From: a virus
Strand: one strand, 5' to 3'
IMG/VR virus record: IMGVR_UViG_3300033512_000218
Coordinates: 32,001 to 96,000 of that record
Length of the DNA stretch: 64,000 nucleotides
Shown: positions 5,601 through 49,562 of the stretch, piece by piece
Numbering within the stretch: position 1 is the stretch's first letter
Layout: each line of letters starts with the position of its first letter
Notes under the pieces: model-generated
Database searches by the model: none
Seen by the model: the letters and a program-made list of their open reading frames with translations, nothing else
Told to the model about the DNA's origin: nothing
Translations under genes and position numbers: made by a program

Positions 5601-8600
5601 ATACTAATGGAATAAATCCATTTATACGAATGACAGGATTAACATTTAATGATAATACTATTAATTTTGATATATCAAATACAACGGCAAGTGGTGAATA
5701 TACAGGATATACAGAATATACTAAAAAATCAATTAATTCATCAAATAGTTTCTTTATAACAAATAAAGATAGTAATATTATTACAGTTGCTAAAAAAGGT
5801 GGAGATTTTGATTCCATAACAAATGCAATAAATTCCATAACAGATGCAACAGATATAAATCAATATATTATATCAATTGGACCCGGTTCTTTTATAGAAG
5901 ATACAATTCAAATGAAAGAATATATATCTTTATCTGGTAGTGGATATGAAACAATTATAGAACCGTCTGATTCAAATAATCATATTATATTAGGGCAAGA
6001 CCATTCACAAATAAGTTATATTACTGTAAACGGATGCACTAATAATTCCGCTATTTATTATTCAGCTAATTTGTCAAGTCCAAATGATTATTTTGTAATT
6101 GAACAATGCCTTTTTGGAAATAATTCGACACAAATAGAAATATACTCTGATGAAAATCCTACAATCATATACGCTAAATCTTGTGAATTAGGGGGCAATT
6201 TCCAATTTGATACATTTGCACATATTCATAATAATCCTACACATAATGCCATTGCATCATTAAGAATGTTTCAATTAGGTTCTCCAGGAGGAGTAGTTGC
6301 ACCTTATCCAAATCCTTTTATTTTATGTGAAGGTATAAATGCTGATTTTAGTGTTAATAGTTGCGGTTTAATAGGCGGAGGTACGGGTAATTGTATTCAA
6401 GTAAGAAATGGGTCACAAATAAGATTAAGTTCTGTTCAAATTATTAATTTTGGTACAGGTATATTATGTGAAAATATTGGAACTGCTCCATTGATAAATG
6501 CGACTGCTGTCACATTTGAAAATTGTATAACGGATATAAATATTGACCATCCTGGAACAAATGGTTCAATAAGTTGTAGTGCTGATAACTCAAAAGTATT
6601 TATTGATGAAAATTCCACAATAGGAATACAATATAATGAAAATTCAAATGATTTAATAGGAACAGTTACTGTTGGAGATATATATCAAGGAACACGACAT
6701 GATAGATTATTAAATTTATCCAAATTAACAACAAATTCATCCACATTGGGATTATATAGTGGAGGAACATTAGATGTGAGTTATTCAGGTATAGATATTA
6801 TTGTTAATGAAGGTGTTGGATTTTTACTTAACCCAACTGATTTTTACATTAAAGAAGTTAATTGGATTACAACAGAATTAGCCATACCAGATAATAATGA
6901 ATCATATATTTATATTGATACAAATTCTGATATACTATATTCATCTTCACTTGTTGATTTAGAGGAATATATTGTTTTAGGGCGTGTGTATAAAAACAAT
7001 TCAAATATTATTTTTATAGAGGAAACTCCAGTTAAAATAAATCATTATTCAAATGAAAATGAAGAATATATTAGAGATATAGTTGGTTCTATTTACAGCT
7101 CGGGTTCAATTGTATCAGAAAATATATCCGATAGAAAATTAGATATTACTTCTGGTTCTTACTATTATGGTACAAATAATTATTTACCTTCGGGAGGAAC
7201 AAATATAACATTTTTACATTTATATCATAATTCAGGAACATGGGATTATGTTTATACTGATACAATAAATAATACTCAATATGATAATGGAACTAATTTA
7301 GTTAATTTAACTGCATCTTATTATTCAAAACACTCATTATATATATCAAGTGAAGGATTAAATGAAAATTATTTTGTTATACATTCACAATTAGAATATG
7401 AAACATTACTTGAAGCACAAAACGGCACAATACCTACAACTCCTACTTGGATAAAAAACGGAATAACATTAATTGCATCAATAATTGTACAACAAGGAAC
7501 AAGTTCAATAATAGAAATTATAGATTTACGTCCTGTTTTTAATGGAAGTGCAAGCTCTTCATCTGAGGCAGTTACAAGTCATAGTGATTTAACAAATTTA
7601 GATTCTGATGATCATTTACAATATTTGTTAGCGACAGGTAGTAGAGTATTATCTGGAAATTTAGATTTAGGGAATAATAATATTACTAATGTAAATTTAG
7701 TCGATGGTATTGATGTAACTTCCCATAAATCAAGACACGATTTTAATGGGAGCGACCCATTGTTATCTGATATAGCATTACCAATTAGTGATTCAACAAA
7801 TTTAGAAGGAGTTAGTAATACAAAAGTTTCAAGATATGACCATGTCCATGCACACGGAAATAGAATAGGTGGAACATTACACGCAGCCGTAACAACTTCT
7901 GTAAATGGATTTATGATTGCTTCTGATAAAGTATTATTAAATAAATTAGCAAATACAAGAATACCAATATCAGATACTAATTATACTATAACATCAGCAA
8001 CGGATGTAACAGTATCGTATGTAACATTAACAGCGAATAGAACTATTACATTACCCGTTGCAACTAATTTAAATCAAACAATTATTATTTTAGATGAATT
8101 AGGAAATTGTTCTGTTGATAAATATTTGAAAATAGTACCAAATGGTTCAGATACTTTAAATGGATTTGTATATTCATTAATTGTAACTTCTTATAGTAGA
8201 GTTAGATTAGTTAGTAATGGTATATCTAATTGGTCATTTACAACAGAAGATATTCAATACTCAACAGGTACAATTAAAAAACCTACATATACAGATAATA
8301 ATAATGGTTCTATTACTATCGGAAATGAAGGTATTTATAATTTACATAAAGATACAACAGGATTAGATAATATATATCCTTATATTGTTAATGGAAATTC
8401 ATTTGTTTTAACTGATTTAACAACAAATTATATTGTTATTAATTATAATTCAGGTACACATGTTATGCAAAAAATAACAGATGTTAGTTTAATAAATGAA
8501 ACTACAATAATACCTATTTATACAATTTATAGAGAAGGTTTAAGATTACATACAATTGATTGGGATAGTTTAGGATTGAGTCTTGTAAATAAAATACATC

Positions 8601-15039: not shown

Positions 15040-15759
15040 ATGTATAATTTATATAGAGAAAATATAGAGAATTGGACTTCTATTAATGATAGTGGAATTC
15101 CAACTTTTAAATTTAGTAATTCTATTCCAAATGGATATGTACCATACGATTCGATATTAGAAATATTTAGTGCTATTGAATATTGTAAAATTTTAATTAT
15201 TGATAATATTGAATATTATTGTGATTATAAGTTTATAAGAGATAGAATAAAAGATAAGTTTACTGAATGGAATAATCATTCAATACAAGAAAAATCTATA
15301 TTTTGTCAATTAAAAATAGGAAGTGAAACTGAAAGAATTGAATTTTTAGAAAGTATATATCCAACGCAAGGATTTATTATAAATCAAAAAATGATGCTAA
15401 ATTATGCTTATAAAGCAACAACTATAAGCAGAGGAAATAGAGTTAAATTAGCATTTAATGAAATATGGTGTAGATTAAATCCAGACGATGCAAAAATAAT
15501 AGCTTCAAAAGGTTCAGAATCAGTTATAGCATATACTACTTTTGGTTCTGATGGAACAATAAATAATGACATGGACGGTATTTATGATTTTATTTATGGA
15601 ATATCAGGAACAAAATATGAAAATAATGGAATATTACAACAAAATCTAATAAGTGAACCAATTGGATATACTCAATTAGAGTTTTGTAACTTTTTATTTA
15701 ATCTTGCTATAACAGGTGAATATTTAAATTTACAAATGGCTCAAGCAATTGGATTATAA
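15040..15759 (+). CDS. hypothetical protein (possible tail fibre chaperone)
   Basis: position immediately after the fibre gene. Confidence 0.5.
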   Translation: MYNLYRENIENWTSINDSGIPTFKFSNSIPNGYVPYDSILEIFSAIEYCKILIIDNIEYYCDYKFIRDRIKDKFTEWNNHSIQEKSIFCQLKIGSETERIEFLESIYPTQGFIINQKMMLNYAYKATTISRGNRVKLAFNEIWCRLNPDDAKIIASKGSESVIAYTTFGSDGTINNDMDGIYDFIYGISGTKYENNGILQQNLISEPIGYTQLEFCNFLFNLAITGEYLNLQMAQAIGL

Positions 15760-15783
15760 AAATAAATACATAAACTAAATATA

Positions 15784-16080
15784 ATGAGTGAATTTTTAAG
15801 ACCAGACGAAATATTAAATAATATATATGATTCGTATACAATAGAAACATTTCAACGTATCGATGAAATTCTTAATGTAGTATATTCAACTGATGTTAAA
15901 GCATTAGCAATTAAAATAATAGATGGTATAACAATATCAAATATTATTGATGATGCTAATATTAATAATGTAGGTAAATTTAGATATTATGATGATGATA
16001 CTAATTCATATTTAGATATGTGTATGAAAACAGGATTAGATACGTATGAATGGATTAATATAAAAACAAATACTTGGTAG
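15784..16080 (+). CDS. small protein sharing the MSEFLRPDEILNN N-terminus with the 2349-aa fibre
   Basis: first ~45 aa align with 2699-9748. Confidence 0.7.
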   Translation: MSEFLRPDEILNNIYDSYTIETFQRIDEILNVVYSTDVKALAIKIIDGITISNIIDDANINNVGKFRYYDDDTNSYLDMCMKTGLDTYEWINIKTNTW

Positions 16081-18814: not shown

Positions 18815-19024
18815 ATGATAGTTGATATTAAATGCCATAAATGTAAAAAAGAATTTGAAGCAGAATGGAATGTGAGAGGAAAATGTCCTAATTGTGAAAA
18901 CAAATATGATTGGACATGGGATGGTGAGTTGTGGAGTGATTTTGAAACTTGTTTTCCAATATTTGAAAGTGAAACGGAAGGTGTTAAAAACTCTTTTTTA
19001 CTTGTAATAGATTGGGATTTTTAA
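18815..19024 (+). CDS. zinc-ribbon protein
   Basis: CHKC...CPNC. Confidence 0.6.
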   Translation: MIVDIKCHKCKKEFEAEWNVRGKCPNCENKYDWTWDGELWSDFETCFPIFESETEGVKNSFLLVIDWDF

Positions 19025-19026
19025 AT

Positions 19027-19083
19027 TTTAACATTTATTAAGATAATTAAATTTGTATTTTTACTTTATTTATATTATCTTTA
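19027..19083 (+). promoter_or_regulatory. 57-bp early-type promoter upstream of cassette array 1
   Basis: motif copy with a variant -7 box (TATCTTTA). Confidence 0.65.
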
Positions 19084-19210
19084 TAATATAATTTAAAATG
19101 AATATTAACCAACAACTGATATTAGGACAGAAACAATGGCTTATATTTGTTGTAAGCAAATAATCACTAAATTGTATGTTATGTACTTTTATCATAATAC
19201 ATTAATCAAA

Positions 19211-19451: not shown

Positions 19452-19578
19452 TAACGGTTGCAAATAAACACAGTAAAAGATATGAAAGAACAAATTTTAG
19501 AAATAGCAGAAAAACTTAGATTAGAACTAATAACTGAATACGAAGCACAAAACCTTTTATTTGGTTTATTTAGTGTTA
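19452..19578. repeat. attC-like site A
   Basis: TAAC..CAAATAAACACAGTAAAAG / CTTTTATTTGGTTTATTTAG..GTTA. Confidence 0.65.
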
Positions 19579-19691
19579 TACAACGAAGTGAACAGTTGGT
19601 TGCTTTTGTAAAATGGTTAGAAGCTAATTCAGACCACTCAATTGATAGAGGTTGGATAGAAGAATATATTGAAGCAACCAATTGTGTATAA
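19482..19691 (+). CDS. cassette hypothetical protein starting inside site A
   Basis: MKEQILEI...LFSVIQRSEQLVAF; stop codon is the TAA of the next TAAC. Confidence 0.6.
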   Translation: MKEQILEIAEKLRLELITEYEAQNLLFGLFSVIQRSEQLVAFVKWLEANSDHSIDRGWIEEYIEATNCV

Positions 19692-19804
19692 CGGCTGAGT
19701 ATTGGCGTTGTTGCCATCATAAACGATTATTAATAACACTAAATTATAAAATTATGACAAAAGTTTCAGAAAACCACGAAGGCAATAACGCTAATACTTT
19801 GTTA
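19689..19804. repeat. attC-like site B
   Basis: arms AGTATTGGCGTTGTTGCC (19698) / GGCAATAACGCTAATACT (19781). Confidence 0.85.
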
Positions 19805-19978
19805 GCCACAGTTATTCCTCAATCAAAAGAAGAGTTGTTAGAATGTATTCAAAATTTGATGGGTGTATTTGACACACCAGTTTCAAGAAGAGCAATAAAG
19901 GGTGAATTTGCCGATGAAGTTCGTAAGATAGGTCGTCAAATTTTGGAAAGTAATGGTAAATCAATGTACGATATATAA
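19754..19978 (+). CDS. cassette hypothetical protein starting inside site B
   Basis: MTKVSENHEGNNANTLLATVIPQ; A-rich leader lies in the hairpin loop. Confidence 0.65.
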   Translation: MTKVSENHEGNNANTLLATVIPQSKEELLECIQNLMGVFDTPVSRRAIKGEFADEVRKIGRQILESNGKSMYDI

Positions 19979-19985
19979 TTGTGGC

Positions 19986-20071
19986 TAACGTATCGTGTAT
20001 GAGCAGTGGCACTTGTACACACTTTCAAATTAGCTACAACGATTATGTGCCATTGCTTATACACGGTGTTA
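19986..20071. repeat. attC-like site C
   Basis: arms CGTGTATGAGCAGTGGCAC / GTGCCATTGCTTATACACG. Confidence 0.85.
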
Positions 20072-20109
20072 GTGACAGTACTTTTTTTAATAATCTAATA
20101 ATCAATTAT

Positions 20110-20664
20110 ATGAAAGCTGAAAAACAAATAATTTACGATGACGAAAATGCAGCCAGATTCGTTGAAAATATCAAAGGTTGGGTTGATATTAATAATCAAT
20201 TTTATGGGAATAATTCAGATTCTGAACATATGGCACGTTGGTCAAGTTGCACACATAAAAAATGTAAATGCGGAAAGCTAATAACTAAAGGATGGACGAA
20301 ATGCGATGAATGTAGAACTAACTCCGAAATTGAAAGATATAACCAACTTACATTTAAAGAATATAATGGTGATATAGTTTATTCACATTATGCTGACCGA
20401 TACTTTATGGATTCTGATGAAATAGAAGATTATTGCTCTGAGGAAGAAATTGAGACTAAAGATTTGAGGCTTGTATTTTGCGAACCAAATAAATTTAGCC
20501 AAATATATAGTGACTATTGGGAAGATGTATTGCAAGAAGATTCAGAAGGCGAATTACCTACGAAGTTACAAGAGGCTTTAGATAATTTAAATAAAATCAT
20601 TTCTGAAATGCCTCCAGCGAGTTATTGCCCAAGTAAAACACGAACTGAATATCGTAGCGTGTAG
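20110..20664 (+). CDS. cassette phage protein with Cys cluster
   Basis: likely start MKAEKQIIYDD; CTHKKCKCG..CDEC. Confidence 0.7.
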   Translation: MKAEKQIIYDDENAARFVENIKGWVDINNQFYGNNSDSEHMARWSSCTHKKCKCGKLITKGWTKCDECRTNSEIERYNQLTFKEYNGDIVYSHYADRYFMDSDEIEDYCSEEEIETKDLRLVFCEPNKFSQIYSDYWEDVLQEDSEGELPTKLQEALDNLNKIISEMPPASYCPSKTRTEYRSV

Positions 20665-20673
20665 TATTGGCAC

Positions 20674-20762
20674 TAACGGTTGGGTGTATGAAACGTAACC
20701 TAACTACAAACTTTAGTATTAACCACTGAACTATAATAGGTTATGTTTTATACACCTTGTTA
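20674..20762. repeat. attC-like site D
   Basis: arms GGTGTATGAAACGTAACCTA / TAGGTTATGTTTTATACACC. Confidence 0.85.
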
Positions 20763-20862
20763 TATGCAGTGCGGACTTATAGTGGAAATGTTGATACGAG
20801 AGATGAACCTTTTTGTTTTATTTTTTGTGCGGTGGGAAAGTAATTAACTTAATAACTAAAAT

Positions 20863-21435
20863 ATGAAATACGAAATAATATACGCTGATCCAGCTTGGGA
20901 ATACAATACAAAGGAATGTTTGGCTAAAACATCAATACTTAATGGAGAATTGAATACCCATTATAGCACAATGACATTGAAAGACTTAAAAGCATTAGAC
21001 GTGCAAAGTATTTCAAATAAAAATTGTATGCTGTTTTTGTGGGTTGTAAGCCCGATGTTAAAAGAAGGTATTGAAGTGATGGAAGCGTGGGGCTTTAAAT
21101 ATGCCACAATAGCTTTTATATGGCACAAGCAAAGAACAAACCCTGGACATTATACAATGAGTGAATGTGAAATTTGCTTGGTAGGGAAGCGTGGCACAAT
21201 ACCAACTCCAAGAGGAGCAAGGAATGTAAGGCAATTTTTATCTGAAATGCGAGGCAAACATTCTGCTAAACCTAATGAAATAAGAACGAGAATTGATACA
21301 ATGTTTCCAACTCAAAATAAAGTAGAATTATTTGCAAGGCAGAATGTTTTAGGATGGGATGCTTGGGGTAACGAATGCGAAAACTCTATAACTATTGGAG
21401 GGGAGGAAAAAAAAATTAAAACAAATTGCGTATAA
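20863..21435 (+). CDS. MT-A70 family N6-adenine methyltransferase (cassette)
   Basis: IYADPAW, LFLWV, WGFKY, HSAKP, ELFAR..GWDAWGNE. Confidence 0.9.
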   Translation: MKYEIIYADPAWEYNTKECLAKTSILNGELNTHYSTMTLKDLKALDVQSISNKNCMLFLWVVSPMLKEGIEVMEAWGFKYATIAFIWHKQRTNPGHYTMSECEICLVGKRGTIPTPRGARNVRQFLSEMRGKHSAKPNEIRTRIDTMFPTQNKVELFARQNVLGWDAWGNECENSITIGGEEKKIKTNCV

Positions 21436-21497
21436 CGAATGGTGCTATGAGCAGGTTTGTGTTGCGCCTGCGGCAAACTTGCTTATAGCACGTGTTA
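21433..21497. repeat. attC-like site E
   Basis: arms GTGCTATGAGCAGGTTTG / CAAACTTGCTTATAGCAC. Confidence 0.85.
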
Positions 21498-21568
21498 CTG
21501 GCTGGCTCGGTTAATTAACCACTAAACTCAAATCGAAGCATTAAACAAAAGAATTTAAAAAAAGAGGG

Positions 21569-22330
21569 ATGGAAAAAAATAAAATATATAACGAAAATTG
21601 CCTTGAAACAATGGCTAAAATGCCTGATAAGTTTGTGGACTTAACGGTTACTTCACCGCCTTATAATATGCGAACACGTATAAGAAACGGACAATATACC
21701 ACAAGAGAGAAAAGCGAACATTTTAGCAAAAAGTATAAGTATTTTGACGATGCTTTACCAATAAATGATTTTTACGAATTTCATAGCAGCGTATTGACTG
21801 AACTATTGAGAGTATCAAAAATTGTTTGCTACAACTTTCAAATAGTGACAGGAAGCAAAGAAGCGTTTTTTAAAATCATTGGCGACTTTAACAAGGATAT
21901 TAAGGATATTATCATTTGGGATAAAGGAAGCGGACAGCCTGCAATGCACGGAATGGTTTTAAATAGCTGCTATGAAATGGTATTGATATTAGAAGATGAT
22001 AAAAGAGCAGGGAGAGCAATACAAAATGCTAAATTCAAAAGAGGTGAAATGAATAACATTTTGAGAATCGGCAGAGGCAAAAAAGTATCTGATGTTCACG
22101 GTGCAATTTTTCCAGAACAACTACCATTTGATTTGATAAACGCTTTTTCAGAAAAAGAAGCATTGATTTACGACCCTTTTATGGGAAGTGGAACTACTGG
22201 ATTAGTAGCAAGTAAATTAGGTAGAAACTATATTGGAAGTGAAATAACAGAAGAATATTGTCAAATAGCTGAAAATCGTATTAAAGAGTGCGGTGGGCTT
22301 TTTTTGAACTCTTTTGAACCGAAATGTTAA
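21569..22330 (+). CDS. N4-C/N6-A DNA methyltransferase, beta class (cassette)
   Basis: TSPPY, HGAIFP, YDPFMGSGTT. Confidence 0.9.
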   Translation: MEKNKIYNENCLETMAKMPDKFVDLTVTSPPYNMRTRIRNGQYTTREKSEHFSKKYKYFDDALPINDFYEFHSSVLTELLRVSKIVCYNFQIVTGSKEAFFKIIGDFNKDIKDIIIWDKGSGQPAMHGMVLNSCYEMVLILEDDKRAGRAIQNAKFKRGEMNNILRIGRGKKVSDVHGAIFPEQLPFDLINAFSEKEALIYDPFMGSGTTGLVASKLGRNYIGSEITEEYCQIAENRIKECGGLFLNSFEPKC

Positions 22331-22358
22331 ATCGCAGCACAAATGTAGAGCTTGCCAG

Positions 22359-22447
22359 TAACGTTGGTGCTATGAGCAGGTTTGCCTTGCAGAAATGTTC
22401 AAATTTAGCACTAATGTTATTGGCAAACTTGCTTATAGCACGTGTTA
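22359..22447. repeat. attC-like site F
   Basis: arms identical to site E, different loop. Confidence 0.85.
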
Positions 22448-22483
22448 TGTGCCGTTTTTATTCACGAATTTAAAATTAGTAAG

Positions 22484-22996
22484 ATGAAAAAATATGATGT
22501 AATTTATGCCGACCCTGCTTGGCGATATGACTTTAGCAAAAGTAATAGCAGGGAAATTGAAAACCAATACCCAACAATGACCATAGATGAAATATGTGGA
22601 TTAAAAGTACCTGCAAAAGATAACGCTGTGCTTTATATGTGGGCAACTGCACCAAAGCTATTGGAAGCAATAAAAGTATTAAATGCGTGGGGCTTTGAAT
22701 ATAAAACACAAGCAGTTTGGGATAAGGAAATTATCGGAATGGGTTATTGGTTCAGAGGACAACACGAAATATTAATAGTTGCTACAAAGGGTAAATTTTC
22801 ACCACCCGAACAACCATTAAGAATAAGTAGTGTGATTAAGGAAAGGAGAACCAAGCATAGCAAGAAACCGATTTATGTAAGAGATATGATTGAAAAATGG
22901 TTTCCCGATTCTGAACGATTAGAAATGTTTGCCCGAACAAGCGGTGAAAATTGGGATGTTTGGGGAAATGAAGTTGAGAGTAGTGTCGCTCTTTAA
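22484..22996 (+). CDS. MT-A70 family methyltransferase (cassette)
   Basis: IYADPAW, WGFEYKT, HSKKP, EMFAR; likely ATG at 22484. Confidence 0.9.
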   Translation: MKKYDVIYADPAWRYDFSKSNSREIENQYPTMTIDEICGLKVPAKDNAVLYMWATAPKLLEAIKVLNAWGFEYKTQAVWDKEIIGMGYWFRGQHEILIVATKGKFSPPEQPLRISSVIKERRTKHSKKPIYVRDMIEKWFPDSERLEMFARTSGENWDVWGNEVESSVAL

Positions 22997-23005
22997 AATG
23001 GCACA

Positions 23006-23093
23006 TAACGGTTGCGTGTATATTTCAGGTTTGCTTGTACGAACTTTGAATTATGCACAAATGCTGATGCAAACTTGAATATACACGTTGTTA
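23006..23093. repeat. attC-like site G
   Basis: arms CGTGTATATTTCAGGTTTGC / GCAAACTTGAATATACACG. Confidence 0.85.
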
Positions 23094-23167
23094 GTAACAG
23101 TAGCATACGACAATGTTAATTTGAAACGCTACACTTTTTATTTTAAATTTTTAAGGAGGGATTTTTT

Positions 23168-24148
23168 ATGAATATTTTGAGTTTATTTGATGGTATAAGT
23201 TGTGGGCAAATAGCGTTGGAACGTGCTAATATTAAAGTTGATAAATATTACGCAAGTGAAATTGATGCCAATGCTATTAAAGTTACGAAACACAACTACC
23301 CAAATACAATACATATTGGAAGTGTGAATGATATTGATTTTAGTAAATACCAAGATATTGATATTTTAATTGGTGGTAGCCCCTGCCAAGACTTATCACG
23401 TTGTAATTTAGAAAATAAGGGATTAGAAGGAGAACGATCTAAATTATTTTTTAAATACATAGAATCGTTAAAAATTACTAAGCCTAAATATTATGTATTT
23501 GAAAATGTTGGAAGTATGACCAATGAGAATATGGAAACCATAAGTGAATATTTCGGACATAAACCAATTTGTATAAACTCAAATTTAGTTTCTCCACAAA
23601 GCAGAGAAAGATATTATTGGACAAATATACCAAACGTAATACCACCAATAGATAAAAACATTTTGGTTAAGAATATAATTGAAAAAACCGTACCCGAAAA
23701 GTATTACTTAAAAATGGATTATGCTTATGTACCAAAGGAAACAAAACATAATTCAAAAAGCGGATTACAATTTGTTTGTGGTATTATTAGCAAAAAGAAA
23801 TGGCTTGATGATGGGAAAGGAAATTCACGTAATTTTTCACAAGGAAATAGAGTTTATTCGATAAATGGAAAATCTTGTACTATAAATGCAAATGCTGGAG
23901 GATTAGGTGGTAAAAGTGGATTATATTATTTAGAAGATGGAAAGGAATTTAGCAAAAGCAATATAAGAAGATTAACACCATTAGAAACAGAACGATTACA
24001 AACAATACCTGACAACTATACCGATATAATAAACGAAACAAATAGGTACAAATGTATTGGCAATGGTTGGACGGTAGATGTAATTGCACATATTCTTTCT
24101 TTTATAAATGGTTTTGAAAAAACCACAGATCGTGGGCAAAAAATTTAA
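23168..24148 (+). CDS. C5-cytosine DNA methyltransferase (cassette)
   Basis: LSLFDGI, GGSPCQDLS, FENV, QSRERYY, RRLTPLETERLQ, IGNGW. Confidence 0.93.
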   Translation: MNILSLFDGISCGQIALERANIKVDKYYASEIDANAIKVTKHNYPNTIHIGSVNDIDFSKYQDIDILIGGSPCQDLSRCNLENKGLEGERSKLFFKYIESLKITKPKYYVFENVGSMTNENMETISEYFGHKPICINSNLVSPQSRERYYWTNIPNVIPPIDKNILVKNIIEKTVPEKYYLKMDYAYVPKETKHNSKSGLQFVCGIISKKKWLDDGKGNSRNFSQGNRVYSINGKSCTINANAGGLGGKSGLYYLEDGKEFSKSNIRRLTPLETERLQTIPDNYTDIINETNRYKCIGNGWTVDVIAHILSFINGFEKTTDRGQKI

Positions 24149-24199
24149 AATAAAAAATTATTATGCACGAACCTTGCTACGAAGAAAGGCTATTGTTAC

Positions 24200-24302
24200 T
24201 AACTATTATATATAAACAAGTGTATTTAATTTATTGATTATGAATACAAAAGACAAAACAAATCTTGAAATTTTCGAAGATATTTCTTGAGTTGAAAATT
24301 AT
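24200..24302. other. attI-like terminal site plus putative integrase 5' remnant
   Basis: TAACTATTATATATAAA..TTATTGATTATG then MNTKDKTNLEIFEDIS*VENY; ~100 bp shared with 42846-42950. Confidence 0.6.
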
Positions 24303-24306
24303 AAAT

Positions 24307-24363
24307 TTTAACATTTATTAACACAAATTAATTTTGATTTAGTTAATAAATGTTTTATCTTTG
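24307..24363 (+). promoter_or_regulatory. 57-bp early-type promoter
   Basis: motif copy. Confidence 0.8.
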
Positions 24364-24388
24364 TGATATAATTTAAAAAATTAAACAA

Positions 24389-25399: not shown

Positions 25400-25882
25400 T
25401 AGCAGTTTGCAATATGAAACGGTTGCATTATAAAACGTTTCAATTTTAGTAATAGCTTGACAGCAACAGTTTTATATTGCTTGTTAGGTATAATAATTTT
25501 TATTATGGGAATGTACACACAATTTATTATCGAATGCAAGTTAAAAGAAGAAACTCCTTACAAAATTATCGAATGTTTAGAAGATATGATAAACGACATT
25601 GATAATGATTTATTTACTTATAATCGAAATCCTTTAAACAATTATTGTGAAAGCAATAAATATTTTAAATCATTTAAAGATTTAGTGTTAAAAGCACATG
25701 GGGATATAAAAAACTATCAGACTGATATTGATAGGTTTACTGATTTTATAAAACCTTATGTGGAAATAGGGTTTTTAGAAAATAATTCTTTTGCTAAATC
25801 ATTATACGAAGGATATGATGAGTGGACGTATTATTGTACCTAACTATTATATATAAAAATCTCAACCTAAGTTATTGACTAT
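25400..25882. mobile_element. integron-like array 2 (attC-like hairpin, one gene, attI-like end)
   Basis: arms GCAATATGAAACGGTTGC / GCAACAGTTTTATATTGC; ends GTTAGGTATAATAA / TTATTGTACCTAAC; then TATTATATATAAA..TTATTGACTAT. Confidence 0.75.
25505..25843 (+). CDS. cassette hypothetical protein
   Basis: likely start MGMYTQF; stop codon is the TAA of TAAC. Confidence 0.7.
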   Translation: MGMYTQFIIECKLKEETPYKIIECLEDMINDIDNDLFTYNRNPLNNYCESNKYFKSFKDLVLKAHGDIKNYQTDIDRFTDFIKPYVEIGFLENNSFAKSLYEGYDEWTYYCT

Positions 25883-25897
25883 ATTTAAAATTATATT

Positions 25898-25954
25898 TTT
25901 AACATTTATTAACATAATTAAATTTGTATTTTTGATTTATTTAATCTATCTTTG
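25898..25954 (+). promoter_or_regulatory. 57-bp early-type promoter
   Basis: motif copy. Confidence 0.8.
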
Positions 25955-25978
25955 TAATATAATTTAAAAAATAATAAA

Positions 25979-29371: not shown

Positions 29372-29545
29372 ATGAAAGATAAATATATAATTATTGACCT
29401 TAGAAATATGAATGTCATGAAAAATAAAGAAGGTAAAATAATTTTTTATAATACAGAAGATGAAGCATATGAAGTATGAGGAATGTATGAATTTGAAAAT
29501 GTCTGGGTTATGAAGTTAATTTATAATCATATTGAAAATTATTAA
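29372..29545 (+). pseudogene. small gene with in-frame TGA at 29477-29479
   Basis: MKDKYIIIDL...EAYEV*GMYEFENVWVMKLIYNHIENY. Confidence 0.5.
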
Positions 29546-29594
29546 ACAATACAAATTTTATAGAATGGAAATTAATTTTACATACAAAAATAAT

Positions 29595-30086
29595 ATGAAT
29601 ACAAATAAAAAATATGAATTAACAAATGAAACAATTAGTCTTAATGGTTATACGTTATATAGAATTAAAGCATTAAAATCATTTTCAGATGTAAAGGAAG
29701 GAGATTTAGGAGGTTTTATACAATCAGAAAAAAATCTATATCAAAAAGATGAATGTTGGGTTTATGATAATGCAATGGTGTTTAATGAAGCAAGAATATT
29801 TGAGAATGCTACAATATCCGAAAACACTAAGGTTTTTAATAATGCATGGGTTTTTAACAATGCTAAAGTTTATGGAAATTCCCAGATTTATGGTAATGCT
29901 AAAATTTATAGAAATGCTAAAGTTTTCGGTGATACTAAGATTTATGATAATGCTAAAGTTTTTGGGAATACCAGAGTTTATGGAAATGCTAAAGTTTATG
30001 GTGATGCTAAAATATTCGTAAATAGTTTAATTTGTGGAACTGCAAATGTGGATTATGATGTTAGTAGAGGTGAAATAAACGAATAA
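29595..30086 (+). CDS. hexapeptide-repeat (left-handed beta-helix) phage protein, paralog 1
   Basis: KKYELT..LYRIKALKSFSDVKEGDLGG then (V/I)xxNAx repeats; likely start MNTNKK. Confidence 0.8.
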   Translation: MNTNKKYELTNETISLNGYTLYRIKALKSFSDVKEGDLGGFIQSEKNLYQKDECWVYDNAMVFNEARIFENATISENTKVFNNAWVFNNAKVYGNSQIYGNAKIYRNAKVFGDTKIYDNAKVFGNTRVYGNAKVYGDAKIFVNSLICGTANVDYDVSRGEINE

Positions 30087-30285: not shown

Positions 30286-30888
30286 ATGGATAAAAACGAA
30301 TTGAACAATTTAATTAAAAAAATTGTTAGTGAAAATACTATCAATGAAGATATTAATAAAAAATATGAATTAACTAAAGACAGTATTAATATTAATGGAA
30401 ATAAATTATATCGAATCAAAGCATTAAGGTCATTTTCACATGTTAAAAAAGGAGATTTAGGAGGATATATTCAATCAGAAAATAATTTATCACATGAAAA
30501 AAAATGTTGGGTGTATAATGATGCTAAAGTATATGGAAATGCTGAAGTTTCTGATAATGCAACAATTTCTATGGATGCTTTAATTCTTGACAATGCTAAA
30601 GTATATGGAAATGCTGAAGTTTCAGGTAATGCTAAAGTTTACGGAGATTCTAAAGTGTTTGGTAATGCGTATGTATATCAAAAATCTGATATTTATGGAA
30701 ATGCTAAGGTTTATGGTCATGCTCAAATATTTGGGTATGCGAAAGTTTATGATAATGCGAAAGTTTATGATACAGCTGAAGTATTAGCACATGCAGAAAT
30801 ATTTGGGGATGCCCAAGTTTTTGGAGATGTATTAGTTTATAATGCTAAAGTTAATTATAAAATTAATAAAGGTGAAATAAACGAATAA
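30286..30888 (+). CDS. hexapeptide-repeat protein, paralog 2, with N-terminal leader
   Basis: VYGNAK repeats; leader IKKIVSENTINED; GTATTTAT at 30248. Confidence 0.85.
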   Translation: MDKNELNNLIKKIVSENTINEDINKKYELTKDSININGNKLYRIKALRSFSHVKKGDLGGYIQSENNLSHEKKCWVYNDAKVYGNAEVSDNATISMDALILDNAKVYGNAEVSGNAKVYGDSKVFGNAYVYQKSDIYGNAKVYGHAQIFGYAKVYDNAKVYDTAEVLAHAEIFGDAQVFGDVLVYNAKVNYKINKGEINE

Positions 30889-42162: not shown

Positions 42163-42950
42163 CGAAAAACGGTATGTGCCGTGATGTTTTTCGTATCTAA
42201 ACGGCTCAAAAGTATCAATAACCACAAATGTAAATAAGTAAGTAGACTGTATCAAAATAGCACTAAAAACAGCATGGACACTATACCGTATGTTATGCGT
42301 ATTAATCATATTATCAATAATTTAATTTTATAAAAATGGAAAATATCACAAATTTTGAAACATTAAACAGTTTTTTAGAAAAATTAGAAACTGAAAAAGA
42401 GGAATTAAATAGAAAAATAGAAATTTTGGAAGAAGAAAAAGATCATCAAAAATGGCAATGGATGAAACACATTGCAGTGCCAAAAGATGATTTTCTTAAA
42501 CAATTGCCTTGTCCACGAATAGAAATGAAAATATTTGGTGATAGATATGAATGTGGATGGATTACAGGAATTGTTTTTCCTGATTATGCAGACGAGGAAA
42601 AAAACAGATTTATTCCTTTTTCAATGACTACTACAAGTGGAAAAGATTTAATCGAAAATAAAAATCCGCGTTTGCCCTGGCGTGATGAGTTTCATATTTA
42701 TTCTTATTCACGAATATTTAATTTACGAATGTTTTTAACACGAGAAAATGATAATTTAATTACAGAATTATTTGTAAAACCTGAATTTATAAATCCTTTA
42801 TCAGATTTTGAAAGTAAAAATGTTATCGTTTAAATTTATTACGCATAACTATTATATATAAACACACATTTAATTTATTGATTATGAATACAAAAGGTAA
42901 ATCAACTCTTGAAATTTTTGAAAATAATTTAAGAGTTAAAAAAATTATAA
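41896..42950. mobile_element. integron-like array 3 (2 cassettes, attI-like end, integrase remnant)
   Basis: GTTATGCACCGTGAA / TTCATGTTGCATAAC; hairpin 42160-42295; GTTATGCGTATTAAT / TTTATTACGCATAAC; terminal site at 42846. Confidence 0.75.
42336..42833 (+). CDS. cassette hypothetical protein
   Basis: ORF between hairpin and terminal site. Confidence 0.7.
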   Translation: MENITNFETLNSFLEKLETEKEELNRKIEILEEEKDHQKWQWMKHIAVPKDDFLKQLPCPRIEMKIFGDRYECGWITGIVFPDYADEEKNRFIPFSMTTTSGKDLIENKNPRLPWRDEFHIYSYSRIFNLRMFLTRENDNLITELFVKPEFINPLSDFESKNVIV

Positions 42951-42972: not shown

Positions 42973-44265
42973 ATGAATAACGAAATAAAAGAATTTATAG
43001 TAAAAATGAACTCAAGTAATTCAAATAATGAAAAACTTAGCATTTTAACATCCTATGAAAATAATACATTAATAAAAGATATATTATTCTATACATACAA
43101 TCCATTTATTAATTATCATCTAACAAGTGAAAATTTAATAAAGAATAATAATATTGTGGTTAATACCGATTTAGATTTATTTTCTATATTAAATATTCTA
43201 TCCAAACGACAAAAAACAGGACATGATGCAATTGGTATTGTAAATGGACTTATTAAAAATAATATTGATTATAAAGATATTATTTATAAAATAATTGATA
43301 AAAATTTAGAAATAAGAATAGATATAAAAACAATCAATAAAGTATTTTCTAATCTAATCCCAACGTATGATGTTGCATTAGCAAATAAATTGGATGATAA
43401 GTTAAAAAATAGTATTAATTGGAAAACCGAACATTGGTTAGCAAGTAGAAAATTAGATGGTATTAGATGTGAAATGATAGTAGATGAAAATTATAATGTT
43501 ACTTCATTTAGTAGAGAAGGAAAAGAAATAGAAACATTAACCACATTAAAAAAATATATTTACGATATTTGTATTTCAAATAAAATCAGTAATGTTGTAT
43601 TTGATGGAGAAATATGTATTATAAATGAAAAAGGAGAAGATGATTTTCAAGGTATTATGAAACAAATAAGAAAAAAGAATCATGATATTATAAATGCAAA
43701 ATATTATATATTCGATTTTCTTAATAAAATAGATTTTGAAAATCAAACAAGTAAAGAAACATTTAGTGAACGTTTATTAAAATTAAATAATCTTAATTAT
43801 AATAATGATAAAATAATTGTACTACCTCAATATGATTTTGATATGTATATTGATTATGAAAAATGGAATAAATTAGTAAGTGATAATAATTGGGAAGGAT
43901 TTATGCTTCGTAAAAATACAATATACAAAGGTAAACGAAGTAATGATATTCTTAAAGTTAAAATTTTTTTTGATAATGAATATATTGTTAAAAAAATAGA
44001 AACAGGTAATTTTAGAGTAATAAATAAAGAAACTAAATTAGAAGAAGTTATTGAAACTCTAACAAATGTTATTATAGAACATAAAGGATATGAAGTATCT
44101 GTTGGTAGTGGATTTTCATTGGAACAACGTAAATTATACTATAATAATCCTACTTTACTATTAAATAAAAATATTACTGTTTCATACTTTGAAGAAACAT
44201 TAGACCAAAATAATAAAATATCATTGAGATTTCCAACTTTCAAAGGTATTAGAGAATTAATTTAA
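42973..44265 (+). CDS. ATP-dependent DNA ligase
   Basis: KLDGIR, FDGEI, YIFD, EGFMLR, LKVK, GSGF, SLRFPTF. Confidence 0.93.
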   Translation: MNNEIKEFIVKMNSSNSNNEKLSILTSYENNTLIKDILFYTYNPFINYHLTSENLIKNNNIVVNTDLDLFSILNILSKRQKTGHDAIGIVNGLIKNNIDYKDIIYKIIDKNLEIRIDIKTINKVFSNLIPTYDVALANKLDDKLKNSINWKTEHWLASRKLDGIRCEMIVDENYNVTSFSREGKEIETLTTLKKYIYDICISNKISNVVFDGEICIINEKGEDDFQGIMKQIRKKNHDIINAKYYIFDFLNKIDFENQTSKETFSERLLKLNNLNYNNDKIIVLPQYDFDMYIDYEKWNKLVSDNNWEGFMLRKNTIYKGKRSNDILKVKIFFDNEYIVKKIETGNFRVINKETKLEEVIETLTNVIIEHKGYEVSVGSGFSLEQRKLYYNNPTLLLNKNITVSYFEETLDQNNKISLRFPTFKGIRELI

Positions 44266-47648: not shown

Positions 47649-49033
47649 ATGAAAATACAAGAACCAAAAAATAAAAACTATTGCTTTACTGTTGTTACAG
47701 TAGGTAAAGATATTCCGTTAGAATGAAGAGATAGAATTGTCCACAAAAACGTTTTTGGTAATTTAGTTATAACTGAAAAAGATAAATATCCTGAAGGAAC
47801 ATTAATGTTATATATTCCAGTAGAAACACAATTATCAGAAGATTATTGTAAATATAATAATTTATATGATAAAAAAGAATATAATATTGATACAAATATA
47901 AAAGGATATATATCATATAATAAAAGAAGAATTAAAGCATTACCTTTAGGAGGATATGAAAGTAATGGATTAATAATGCCAATTGAATCTATCACAAATA
48001 TATTTACTGATTCAGGAAAACTTCCGACAAATTGGAAAAACGAAGGAACTGAATTTGATGAATTAAATGGAGTTGAATTATGTAGAAAATATATTCCTAA
48101 TCAAACTAAAAAACAACATACGACAGATAAAAAAAATACTAAAAAAAGAAAACAAATATTGAAATCAAAATTGTTTGTCAACCAATTTTGATTTCATATT
48201 GATACATCACATTTAGGAAGAAATACTCAAAAATTAAATCCAACTGATTTAATTCAAATTTCAGATAAATGGCATGGAACTTCAGGTATTTCAAATAAAT
48301 GTTTAGTTAAAAGAAATTTAACTTTTATAGAACGTATTCTTATTAAATTAGGATTAAAAATTCAAACTGAACATTATGATAATGTAGGTATATATGCTTC
48401 AAGAAAAGTTATTAAAAATAGCAAATTTACAACTGAAAATGATTATTATAATAATGATATTGATTGGAGAGAAGTAGTACATAAGAATTTATTACCTCTT
48501 ATTTCAAATGGAATGTCTGCTTATTATGAAATTGTTGGATTTTTACCTAATGGAGCACAAATTCAAAAATCATATGATTATGGATATGTGCCTCCTACTG
48601 ATAAAAATTGGATTGAAGGTACACATTACGGAGTTCATATATATCGTTTAACTTATACAAATACAGAAGGTATTGTATATGAATTTTCTGCAAAACAAGT
48701 TCAAGATTATTGTAAAACACATGGATTAAAATCAGTAGTTGAATTATACTATGGATATGCAAATCAATTATTTGATGTTGTAGATGAAAAAGGAGAAAAA
48801 TTATCAGAAACTAATGTAGATGAATGGAAAACTCAATTTATTGAATTTTTAAAGAAAAAATATTGGTATAAACAATGTAAATATTGTAAAAATAAAGTAC
48901 CTAATGAGTAATAGTATTAAGAATTGAAGATAGTGGTTTAACTGTATTTAAACATAAAAACTTTGATTTCTTAAAATATGAAACAAAACAACTTGATACC
49001 GAAACATTAAATATTGAAGATGAAGAAATATAG
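47649..49033 (+). pseudogene. RNA ligase (Rnl2/DRB0094-like) with two in-frame TGA and a 3' frameshift
   Basis: IPLE*RDRI (47724), NQF*FHIDT (48189), motif I KWHGTS, YYEIVG; after 48908 the alternative frame reads IVLRIE..FKHKNFDFLKYE. Confidence 0.75.
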
Positions 49034-49562
49034 TATTATTTATGCTGACCCCCCTTGGAGGTATAAAGACCAAAAGAATAACGACCCAAATATGGGTGGA
49101 ATAACATATCCTACAATGGATTTAGAGGAAATAAAATCATTACCTATTAATGATATATCTGATAAAGATTGTGCGTTATTTCTTTGGGCTACAATGCCAT
49201 TATTACCCGAAGCATTAGAAGTTATCAAATCATGGGGATTTAAATATACAACTTGTGCTTTTACTTGGGTAAAACAAAATCCAAAAGGAGAAGGTATTTA
49301 TTCTGGTTTAGGACATTGGACAAATGGTAATGCTGAATTATGTTTATTTGCTAAAAAAGGAACACCTAAAAGAAATGAAAAAAATGTTAAACAAATAGTG
49401 TTATCACCACGTTCAAGACATTCTGAAAAACCAAATGAAGTTAGAAATAGAATAGTACGTTTAATAGGTGATTTACCTCGTATTGAATTATTTGCAAGAC
49501 AAAAAATAGAAGGATGGGATATTTGGGGGAATGAATTAACAAATGATATAGAAATAAATTAA
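49020..49562 (+). CDS. MT-A70 family methyltransferase
   Basis: IYADPPW, WGFKYTT, HSEKP, ELFAR. Confidence 0.9.
   Translation: MKKYSIIYADPPWRYKDQKNNDPNMGGITYPTMDLEEIKSLPINDISDKDCALFLWATMPLLPEALEVIKSWGFKYTTCAFTWVKQNPKGEGIYSGLGHWTNGNAELCLFAKKGTPKRNEKNVKQIVLSPRSRHSEKPNEVRNRIVRLIGDLPRIELFARQKIEGWDIWGNELTNDIEIN

Follow-up and report, generated by a model that had tools for sequence, protein, structure and literature searches.

The central question of integron mechanics is how the recombinase chooses between two nearly identical folded strands. In classical integrons this choice is made via extrahelical bases, to which a diffuse bias in G:T and purines is added. Among 263 classical attC sites, G:T mispairs average 1.24 on the recombined bottom strand, in which IntI cleaves AA|C, versus 0.39 on the top strand, and the bottom strand folds 2.12 kcal/mol better (PMC5027507). 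Classical attC sites, in other words, are already known to be enriched in G:T on the strand that is recombined (Nivina 2016, PMC5027507). Between the folded ssDNA of a phage and dsDNA, Xer recombinases exchange a single pair of strands (PMC3442271). In CTX-phi, the host XerCD enzyme joins a folded single-stranded phage hairpin, in which the strand specificity resides, to the duplex chromosomal dif site, and the whole phage genome is integrated once (PMC3442271).

Here we describe an array of hairpin sites in a large phage, a carrier unlike that of classical integrons. The window is a stretch of 64,000 nucleotides (IMG/VR record IMGVR_UViG_3300033512_000218, positions 32,001 to 96,000). The array spans 19452-23093 and consists of seven sites, A-G, with coordinates counted from TAAC to GTTA. 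Wobbles are written as left base·right base, and positions are counted from the G of the right GTT; the register of site G was read by hand from the sequence.

19452..19578, + strand: site A, a weak hairpin with TAAC at 19452-19455, GTTA at 19575-19578 and G19473·T19560 (-15); the loop contains an ATG at 19482
19689..19804, + strand: site B, an 18-bp stem with G·T at 19704·19792 (-9) and 19710·19786 (-15); the large loop contains an ATG at 19754
19986..20071, + strand: site C, G·T at 20001·20058 (-10) and 20006·20053 (-15)
20674..20762, + strand: site D, G·T at 20690·20749 (-10) and 20695·20744 (-15)
21433..21497, + strand: site E, G·T at 21449·21484 (-10) and 21454·21479 (-15)
22359..22447, + strand: site F, G·T at 22374·22434 (-10) and 22379·22429 (-15); the loop holds an additional partial right arm and a GTTA
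23006..23093, + strand: site G, right core GTTA at 23090-23093 and G·T at 23028·23075 (-15); the 5' arm has one bulged T

The first-pass annotation of this DNA had claimed that mismatches in the hairpins are mostly G·T on the + strand, and the pattern proves stronger than that. In 7/7 sites a + strand G·T precedes the right GTT core by exactly 15 nt, and 5/7 have another at -10 or -9; A·C is absent from the seven stems over positions -2 to -21, where G·T occurs 12 times. Both quoted examples are present, GAGCAGTGG/CCATTGCTT in site C and TATGAAACGTAACC/GGTTATGTTTTATA in site D, each with two G·T pairs on the + strand. The wording 'substitutions between arms' needs one correction, since the differences are not scattered but consist of wobble pairs kept at fixed positions. 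Sites E and F have identical arms and are therefore not independent. Folding both strands, as had been proposed, makes the + strand the more stable in sites C to G with DNA parameters: -19.5 vs -16.4 kcal/mol (+ vs -) in C, -16.0 vs -10.0 in D, -17.2 vs -11.9 in E, -19.5 vs -15.4 in F, and -14.9 vs -13.4 in G.

The array carries genes and is followed by an attI-like site and the remnant of a recombinase gene.

19012..19100, + strand: phage promoter-like repeat, copy upstream of the array
20863..24148, + strand: cassette payload, four methyltransferase genes
20863-21435, + strand: orphan DNA methyltransferase (MT-A70), cassette payload
21569-22330, + strand: orphan DNA methyltransferase (N6_N4), cassette payload
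22484-22996, + strand: orphan DNA methyltransferase (MT-A70), cassette payload
23168-24148, + strand: orphan DNA methyltransferase (C5), cassette payload
24200..24239, + strand: attI-like terminal site, TAAC|TATTATATATAAAC...
24240..24290, + strand: recombinase gene stub of 16 codons, MNTKDKTNLEIFEDIS*
24292-24380: phage promoter-like repeat, second copy, after the array

The conserved part of the attI-like site starts at TAAC, with the polarity of the left cores of the hairpins. Related phages encode an intact recombinase of 265-269 aa where the window has the stub. No PF00589 match and no intact recombinase were found in the window record, which retains only the 16 codons, so the pattern here may be a relic. 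With four orphan DNA methyltransferases as payload, the device may serve the swapping of anti-restriction genes. The GC skew of the + strand is positive along the whole window; it was rejected as a guide to the replication strand because it tracks gene orientation.

The recombinase encoded beside the array in related phages is ∼266 aa long and Xer/XerA-like. Its best matches are NF040815 (183-197 bits, under the curated cut-off of 220) and PDB 4a8e (138 bits). Against the IntI family model TIGR02249 it scores 143-164 bits, where the cut-off is 265, and the match is broken into two stretches. When aligned to IntI4 (PDB 2a3v), residues 179-213 of the query stand opposite IntI4 182-264, and ∼48 residues are missing. 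Judged from its sequence, the enzyme is not an IntI and is missing the IntI-specific insertion in the catalytic domain. The attI/integrase remnant of the first-pass annotation is present as an attI-like site and a recombinase stub, but the enzyme is Xer/XerA-like. The phage recombinase resembles the archaeal XerA or 'tyrosine recombinase/integron integrase' family (NF040815; 4a8e, 5hxy) in its size, which is ∼265 aa in that family, and is similar in domain order, with SAM_4 followed by the catalytic domain. XerA acts on duplex dif sites, unlike the hairpin use that we propose for the phage enzyme. We know of no description of cassette arrays or hairpin sites for the XerA family.

To obtain a larger set of sites, viral contigs were searched for exact copies of the attI-like/stub sequence; only one locus was returned, and the recombinase there became the query. 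Related phage contigs were then scanned upstream of the small Xer-like tyrosine recombinase, with G·T and A·C treated alike, which yielded 223 unique sites. The link to the recombinase is evident in the density of AAC...GTT hairpins, with 252 in 483 kb upstream of the gene versus 30 in 687 kb downstream (∼12x denser). With the register anchored on the right core, the pair at -15 is G·T in 205/223 sites (92%), the G being in the 5' arm and the T in the 3' arm. G·T pairs are also found at -10 in 78 sites and at -12 in 40, and about half of the sites have a second G·T at one of these positions. Altogether the stems contain ∼406 wobbles versus 49 A·C mismatches (∼8:1); 24 of these rare A·C lie at -6. 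The G·T-type pairs are strongly oriented, with G on the 5' arm in 349 of them and on the 3' arm in 34. The first-pass annotation had named the lack of a significant G·T excess on one strand in a larger set as what would refute it, and the excess is very large.

Around these fixed pairs the stems vary. Arm-to-arm Watson-Crick covariation is observed at nearly every stem position, with three to four pair types near -15; at -16, for example, the pairs are T-A in 121 sites, G-C in 68 and A-T in 16. Folded as DNA, the + strand is the better in 208/223 sites (mean difference -2.89 kcal/mol), with 2.87 G·T pairs per fold versus 0.78 on the - strand. Control hairpins downstream on the same contigs contain 33 G·T vs 35 A·C, and 29 control hairpins showed no bias between the folded strands. 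Kinship among the sites means that raw counts overstate independence; the counts remain significant after the arms are clustered at 70% identity (30 clusters richer in G·T, 4 richer in A·C). The proposal that selection acts on a folded + strand gains support from the covariation, the ∼8:1 ratio in 223 sites of independent context set against 1:1 in controls, and the energy difference of 2.9 kcal/mol.

Outside the stem, a T precedes AAC in 208/223 sites and an A follows GTT in 192/223; letters are also conserved at -8 from AAC (T) and at +10/+11 from GTT (G/T). In 189 folded sites we found no conserved extrahelical bases: single-base bulges are rare and unplaced (24 in the left arm, 15 in the right), and the only regular bulge is a spacer of 3-4 nt on the AAC arm. 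The extrahelical base positions numbered 16, 20 and 23/24 are not taken here to match -10, -12 and -15, as we have no stated origin for that numbering. The position of the second wobble showed no link to recombinase clade, and all site types coexist within single arrays.

Two lines of evidence that do not depend on the wobbles bear on which strand is recombined. The attI-like site reads variable...TAAC|TATTATATATA on the recombinase-sense strand ahead of more than 60 intact recombinase genes. Cassette boundaries provide the second line. L009:399-893 equals L011:7688-8182 at 99.4% identity, with two TAAC cores at its bounds; the identity of L025 and L059 ends directly after CTAACG; the cassette boundary seen in L017/L019 is also at the left TAAC; and a lake-water contig matches the window from 23006 to 24203 only, that is, from TAAC to TAAC. 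The clean boundaries, about five events, all coincide with the left TAAC core; the right GTT core has none. This evidence is comparative, with a resolution no finer than TAAC(G). It indicates crossover in the AAC of the + strand, and the coding strand, rich in G·T, would then correspond to the 'bottom' strand of integrons. The same equivalence had been drawn in the first-pass annotation, and both the boundaries and the polarity of the attI-like TAAC support it.

Crossover evidence was restricted to a strict census and individual alignments. Most 'left-core starts' of a first census were rejected as shared hairpin families, whose similarity begins at TAAC and ends shortly after GTTA. Both arms are alike (90% or more) while both flanks differ in 232 cross-locus pairs, which are uninformative on crossover. 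Among public sequencing runs, none covers more than 17% of the window, and most of the joints and loose ends trace to short contigs with 90-95% likeness. Some of these begin their match at 22443, in the right core of site F, continue for only ∼30 nt and then jump to 22951; we attribute them to relatives or repeats and did not count them as right-core crossovers. A classical-integron control run through the same pipeline gave three attC sites upstream of IntI-like genes, 3/3 of which favour the intI-sense strand, a sample too small to weigh.

The phage sites share much with classical attC sites, among them those of class 1 and the Vibrio VCR sites. Both are imperfect hairpins with inverted AAC/GTT cores at cassette boundaries and an unpaired spacer between core and stem; both appear to cross over in the AAC of one folded strand, although for the phage sites this is inferred from few events; and both systems have an attI-type partner beside the recombinase gene, on its sense strand. 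The G:T excess and lower folding energy of the recombined strand are shared as well (2.87 vs 0.78 and -2.89 kcal/mol in the phage sites). What is new here is the fixed position of the wobble (92% at -15), which in classical attC is a diffuse bias; the lack of conserved extrahelical bases; a recombinase that falls under the IntI cut-offs and has no IntI insertion; and cassette genes that share the recombined strand and are read towards attI, where the promoterless classical ones occupy the opposite strand and are read away from it. The phage sites also differ from classical attC in their asymmetric spacers, one of 5-7 nt and the other of 1-2 nt. CTX-phi resembles the proposed system in that a Xer-type enzyme works on a phage hairpin, folded from a single strand, together with a duplex site. 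The phage system differs from it in having a single phage-encoded recombinase and arrays of small cassettes with one hairpin each.

We propose, with a probability of about 0.64, that the hairpins are attC-like recombination sites of a phage-borne integron-like system, in which the + strand G·T wobbles select the strand that is recombined. No experiment on recombination, ssDNA use or strand choice underlies this proposal. The cassettes would be moved by a small Xer/XerA-like tyrosine recombinase, whose gene has apparently been lost from the window record to leave the stub. On the + strand, a cassette would consist of C, a G/T-rich spacer of 5-7 nt, a stem of ∼19-20 bp with its loop, a spacer of 1-2 nt, and GTTA, followed by a leader, an ORF and a terminal ...TAA, with crossover predicted within the 5' TAA|C. 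Wherever the + strand has a wobble, its complement has A·C, so that the + helix is continuous while the - hairpin is interrupted and ∼3 kcal/mol weaker. The wobbles may in this way be a strand-selection device for a recombinase acting on the folded + strand, although the ssDNA substrate and the identity of the cleaved strand are both inferences. Because that strand is the sense strand of the recombinase and cassette genes, cassettes would enter in one orientation only. The arrangement of the sites counts against use of the + strand in one respect: under the classical extrahelical-base rule it is of the 'top strand' type. The fixed position of the wobble on the arm opposite the AAC presumed to be cleaved, in the absence of extrahelical bases, suggests that the enzyme may read the wobble directly, by analogy with the reading of extrahelical bases by IntI. 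It is a tentative extension of this idea, and one we would not yet rely on, that the G·T at -15 (with a second at -10/-12) is a structural code that replaces extrahelical bases and is read by a small Xer-like enzyme without the base-flipping insertion of IntI. The system would then be a second, phage-carried kind of ssDNA-hairpin cassette recombination, coupled to transcription: the recombined strand is the coding, non-template strand, so transcription of the array would expose the hairpin and couple expression to cassette mobility.

The same strand is transcribed, and selection at the RNA level is the alternative we take most seriously, even if we consider it unlikely. The hairpins would act in a polycistronic + strand mRNA, where they would give each cassette gene a 5' stabiliser, a processing site or a translational insulator, with G·U tolerated or required, and recombination would use the duplex TAAC core only. 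An RNA role is not excluded, since the ORF is on the G·T strand in 161/166 cassettes, pointing towards the attI-like site and recombinase gene, and selection for G·U gives the same bias. An attempt to separate DNA from RNA by gene orientation failed, as the longer ORF is on the - strand in only 5/166 cassettes, at ambiguous or doubtful sites. Promoter-like repeats flank the array, two of the loops contain a start codon, and as RNA the hairpins fold very stably (mean -31.7 kcal/mol for + vs -26.2 for -). Metatranscriptome contigs cover several hairpins, but RNA contigs show no strand and DNA carry-over is possible. RNA stability does not, however, need a wobble fixed relative to the GTT core with its G so consistently in the 5' arm (349 vs 34), and the inverted TAAC/GTTA cores, asymmetric spacer and position at cassette boundaries mirror attC, an ssDNA substrate. 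No Rfam family was matched apart from two chance microRNA-type hits (E 0.16 and 0.33), and a terminator scan found 2 where 2.3 were expected, none of them equal to a whole site. Classical attC sites show the same bias on a recombined strand that is non-coding, where RNA offers no explanation (PMC5027507).

It is also conceivable, if improbable, that the - strand is the real substrate and the + hairpin is ignored, the fixed A·C mismatches and spacer bulge being read like extrahelical bases. Position-specific mismatches do resemble recognition marks, and here the bulge and the A·C mismatches are all on the arm opposite the - strand's own 5' AAC, which is the classical bottom-strand arrangement. 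Cleavage at that AAC predicts boundaries at the right GTT, yet every clean one is at the left. The attI-like TAAC is moreover on the + strand only, with its conserved part to the right, so the strand joined to the attI-like site is the G·T strand, and in classical sites it is the G:T-rich strand that is recombined. We give as little weight to the idea that the arms are two different double-stranded half-sites (G vs A), bound unfolded. The left G (190/223) and right T (202/223) are each conserved separately and the flanking letters are conserved beyond the stem, as such recognition would have it; but the arms vary widely between sites and remain complementary within each, which points to selection on intrastrand pairing and not on a fixed sequence, and loops of 10-150 nt are unfit for a duplex core site. 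Least credible is a functionless G·T pattern, left by strand-biased C-to-T or A-to-G mutation or inherited from one ancestral hairpin. The positive GC skew throughout the window and the relatedness of many sites (the 232 pairs above) would fit. Against this, the wobbles at -15, -10 and -12 persist where other stem positions have turned over with compensatory changes, control hairpins on the same contigs are balanced, and a strand-wide bias would not be expected to produce the asymmetry between the arms.

Strand choice appears to be accomplished here by a different and simpler mark, a single wobble at a fixed distance from the core, in sites used by an enzyme without the IntI insertion. If correct, this would provide a minimal, testable model of strand selection with a single base pair to mutate, and capture of cassettes by ssDNA hairpins would not be limited to IntI or to bacteria. 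Genomes of phages and Bacteroidota could then also be searched for a practical signature that consists of TAAC, a ∼20-bp stem whose G·T lies at -15, and GTTA, in that order. Such arrays may escape current integron finders, which are optimised for IntI and for attC sites that have extrahelical bases. In a separate collection of Bacteroidota genomes and MAGs, the G·T at -15 is present in 16 of about 19 sites.

Sites A–G, seven hairpins between window positions 19452 and 23093, have 12 G·T pairs in their stems, and A·C pairs are absent. The count rests on an ungapped alignment of each site's left and right arms, which scores G·T and A·C alike (site G was read by hand). All seven sites carry a G in the 5′ arm opposite a T in the 3′ arm at exactly position −15, counted upstream from the first base of the right GTT core. 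A second G·T pair lies at −10 in sites C, D, E and F and at −9 in B; site G has a single bulged T in its place. In site G, the right core corresponds to the second of the two GTT triplets in GTTGTTA (23090), in agreement with the end coordinate in the first-pass annotation. That annotation had described the mismatches as mostly G·T on the + strand and inferred selection on a folded single + strand, and both of the arm pairings it quoted are present in the sequence. Folding with DNA energy parameters favours the + strand over the − strand in every one of sites C–G, with margins of 1.5 to 6 kcal/mol. The loop of site F (22405–22425) includes an extra partial right arm and core, TTTAGCACTAATGTTATTGGC, whose pairing with the left core and spacer yields a different fold, reminiscent of a fusion of two sites.

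The hairpins separate the genes of a + strand row, with TAAC at their left edge and GTTA at their right edge. The window (bases 32001–96000) comes from a viral record of 139.6 kb, estimated to be ~60% complete; its G+C content is ~20%, rising to 33% at 20–24 kb. The four final genes of the row encode orphan DNA methyltransferases (two MT-A70, one N6_N4 and one C5). No tyrosine recombinase match was found in the record, and a relaxed scan of the whole 139.6 kb found no other sites of A–G quality. The elements bordering the row, and the copies of one of them elsewhere in the window, are as follows.

24200–24203, TAAC of the attI-like site at the end of the gene row
24240–24290, 16-codon gene stub after the attI-like site
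19012–19100 and 24292–24380, two copies of a phage promoter-like repeat, flanking the + strand gene row
25883–25971, 35103, 41022, 41662, 46095, 54947, 57094 and 60746, further copies of the same repeat

The repeat is ~89 nt long (TTTAACATTTATTAAC...TTTGTATTT...TATCTTTGTAATATAATTTAAAA), occurs ten times in the window, and resembles the Bacteroidota-type TTTG / TAnnTTTG promoter pattern. A second locus with a single cassette (25418–25488 and 25832–25882) has a short hairpin with a 12-bp stem, from AAC at 25418 to GTT at 25483, and its own attI-like copy. The attI-like sequence recurs a third time, together with a recombinase stub, at 42853–42942, just before a DNA ligase gene (42973–44265). Outside the array, ORF 49014–49562 is a third MT-A70-like gene, of which 52 nt (49485–49536) are 79% identical to positions 21325–21376 of a cassette gene.

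Used as a query, the stub sequence retrieved a single viral contig in which a tyrosine recombinase gene (PF13495 and PF00589) follows the match immediately, and the recombinase protein of that contig retrieved 80 further viral loci. In most of these the gene encodes 260–269 residues with the full R-K-HxxR-H-Y set. We scanned all loci for hairpins running from AAC to GTT with at least 12 Watson-Crick pairs in 16 and no more than one transversion mismatch; in the score, G·T and A·C counted equally. The scan gave 252 sites in 483 kb upstream of the recombinase versus 30 in 687 kb downstream. Within the 16-bp scan window, the 224 unique upstream sites contain 383 G·T-type pairs versus 38 A·C pairs, with the G in the 5′ arm in 349 of the 383; the 29 downstream hairpins that served as controls hold 33 G·T versus 35 A·C. 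Setting the register on the right core sharpened the pattern (223 sites): G·T occupies −15 in 205 sites, −10 in 78 and −12 in 40, with T·G at −13 in 19 and C·A at −6 in 24. Summed over −2 to −21 there are ~406 wobbles versus 49 A·C pairs, and wobbles still outnumber A·C by ~82 to 49 once −15, −10 and −12 are left out. The columns adjoining −15 vary among three or four different Watson-Crick pairs, indicating that the stem has been turned over by compensatory change while the −15 pair stayed a wobble.

DNA folding favours the + strand in 208 of the 223 sites (mean difference 2.89 kcal/mol; 2.87 G·T pairs per site on the + strand versus 0.78 on the − strand), and no folding-energy strand bias was found in the control hairpins. 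When the arms were clustered by single linkage at 70% identity, 30 clusters favoured G·T and four favoured A·C. An independent collection of Bacteroidota genomes and MAGs, a Flavobacterium isolate among them, has the −15 wobble in 16 of ~19 sites. The first-pass inference would have been refuted had a larger set of sites lacked a G·T excess on one strand; the excess is present by a wide margin.

Several further features recur in these sites. C·A at −6 (C in the 5′ arm, A in the 3′ arm), near the stem base on the + strand, is the one place where A·C is frequent, and it characterises a sub-family of sites (e.g. in loci L066, L046 and L048). A ~20-nt motif, (A)TGTAGCAnTTGnnnnTAAC, is shared by the ends of many cassettes (20655–20677 and 22343–22362 in the window) and also lies just left of the attI-like TAAC in loci L008, L018, L020, L045, L059, L077 and L079. 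A T stands eight nt before AAC in 213 of the 223 sites, opposite a conserved G at +10 after GTT; the two could add another T·G wobble to the site, within an extended outer box. Some hairpins are followed by a conserved leader, CCTTTTT...TTTTGTGCGGTGGGAAA, which precedes unrelated genes in different phages and may be a cassette-borne promoter or translation signal.

Window 20804–20848, CCTTTTT leader
Locus L041, about 8400–8425, CCTTTTT leader
Locus L050, about 7410–7434, CCTTTTT leader

In classical integrons, IntI cleaves the bottom-strand AAC between A and C, and that strand has more G:T pairs (1.24 versus 0.39) and folds 2.12 kcal/mol better (PMC5027507). In the phage loci, the attI-like site consists of variable sequence up to TAAC and then conserved TATTATATATA, ~50 nt upstream of the recombinase start codon, and it precedes more than 60 intact recombinase genes. 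Its variable side is on the left, like that of the left cores of the hairpins. Segment L009:399–893 is 99.4% identical to L011:7688–8182 over a stretch between two successive TAAC cores, and the hairpins that follow it differ; identity between L025 and L059 ends directly after CTAACG, and that between L017 and L019 starts at ATAAC. The only part of the window matched by a 2.1-kb lake-water contig is 23006–24203, from the TAAC of hairpin G to the attI-like TAAC (97.5% identity). This span comprises hairpin G and the C5 methyltransferase gene, a near-identical cassette in a different context. All of these clean cassette boundaries lie at the left core, and in a census of the related loci none of the boundaries that take in gene body lay at the right core. 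Wastewater, lake and sediment runs belonging to 16 studies also contain small pieces of the array.

Without relying on the wobbles, the attI-like polarity and the left-core boundaries both locate the crossover in the + strand AAC. Judged from sequence comparison, the cassette is predicted to be C-spacer-hairpin-GTTA-leader-ORF-...TAA, and the G·T strand is inferred to be the one with the exchanged AAC. It is the sense strand of the recombinase gene and also bears 161 of 166 cassette genes, directed towards the attI-like site. The earlier assignment of the + strand as the equivalent of the integron ‘bottom’ strand is thus supported by polarity and boundaries, and selection on its folded form is supported as well; the evidence is comparative throughout, clean boundary events are few, and the sites have shared ancestry.

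RNA-level selection on G·U pairs remains the serious rival explanation of the strand bias, since the messenger is the same strand and G·U would be selected in the same direction. It is weakened, however, by the constant spacing between the wobble and the recombination core, the preference of the G for the 5′ arm (349 versus 34), the attC-like architecture of the sites and the same bias in classical sites, where it lies on the non-messenger strand. If the − strand were the true substrate, the unpaired features would lie opposite AAC, as the classical rule has it, but the polarity of both cassette boundaries and attI-like sites contradicts this. Covariation of the arms likewise contradicts an asymmetry between half-sites in duplex DNA, and a mutational bias is at odds with the position-specific wobbles and the unbiased control hairpins.

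With the folded + strand as substrate, the wobbles would make the two complementary hairpins unequal, leaving the + strand helix unbroken and the − strand helix interrupted by A·C and ~3 kcal/mol weaker. This inequality would fix the recombined strand and thereby the orientation of each inserted cassette. The location of the wobble is fixed and falls where a second subunit of the recombinase would be expected. From this position and the T on the arm opposite the cleaved AAC, we infer that the recombinase reads the wobble directly, beyond any added stability. The window array has lost its recombinase, so its pattern is inherited and not maintained by ongoing recombination.

The recombinase most resembles enzymes of the XerA type (NF040815, 183–197 bits against a cut-off of 220; PDB 4a8e). 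The IntI model matches it in two pieces only, under the cut-off, and relative to IntI4 ~48 residues are missing where the IntI insertion sits. The system is integron-like in its working and lies outside the IntI family. The recombinase-sense strand is the recombined strand in classical integrons and, by inference, here; unlike in classical integrons, the phage cassette genes lie on that strand and are read towards the attI-like site. Conserved single-base bulges are absent from the hairpins, whose only regular unpaired stem element is a 3–4 nt G/T-rich bulge of the left spacer. The arm with the T of each wobble corresponds to the arm that holds the extrahelical bases in classical sites, opposite the cleaved AAC. 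In CTX-phi, Xer enzymes act on folded single-stranded phage DNA (PMC3442271). Among the papers searched, none described such phage arrays. That the recombined strand has an excess of G:T is an established principle; new here are the near-invariant wobble, the absence of extrahelical bases, the Xer-like enzyme, the genes on the recombined strand and the phage carrier.

Other repeats in the window lie away from the array. Two arrays of 18-nt tandem repeats (29763–30077 and 30496–30846; the repeat table lists 11 and 13 copies) fall inside neighbouring ORFs (29532–30086 and 30286–30888) and would encode six-residue protein repeats. The start of a 2349-aa ORF (upstream region and first ~15 codons, MSEFLRPDEILNN..., 2668–2743) recurs at 15753–15828 with 80–93% identity, at the start of a 98-aa ORF (15784).
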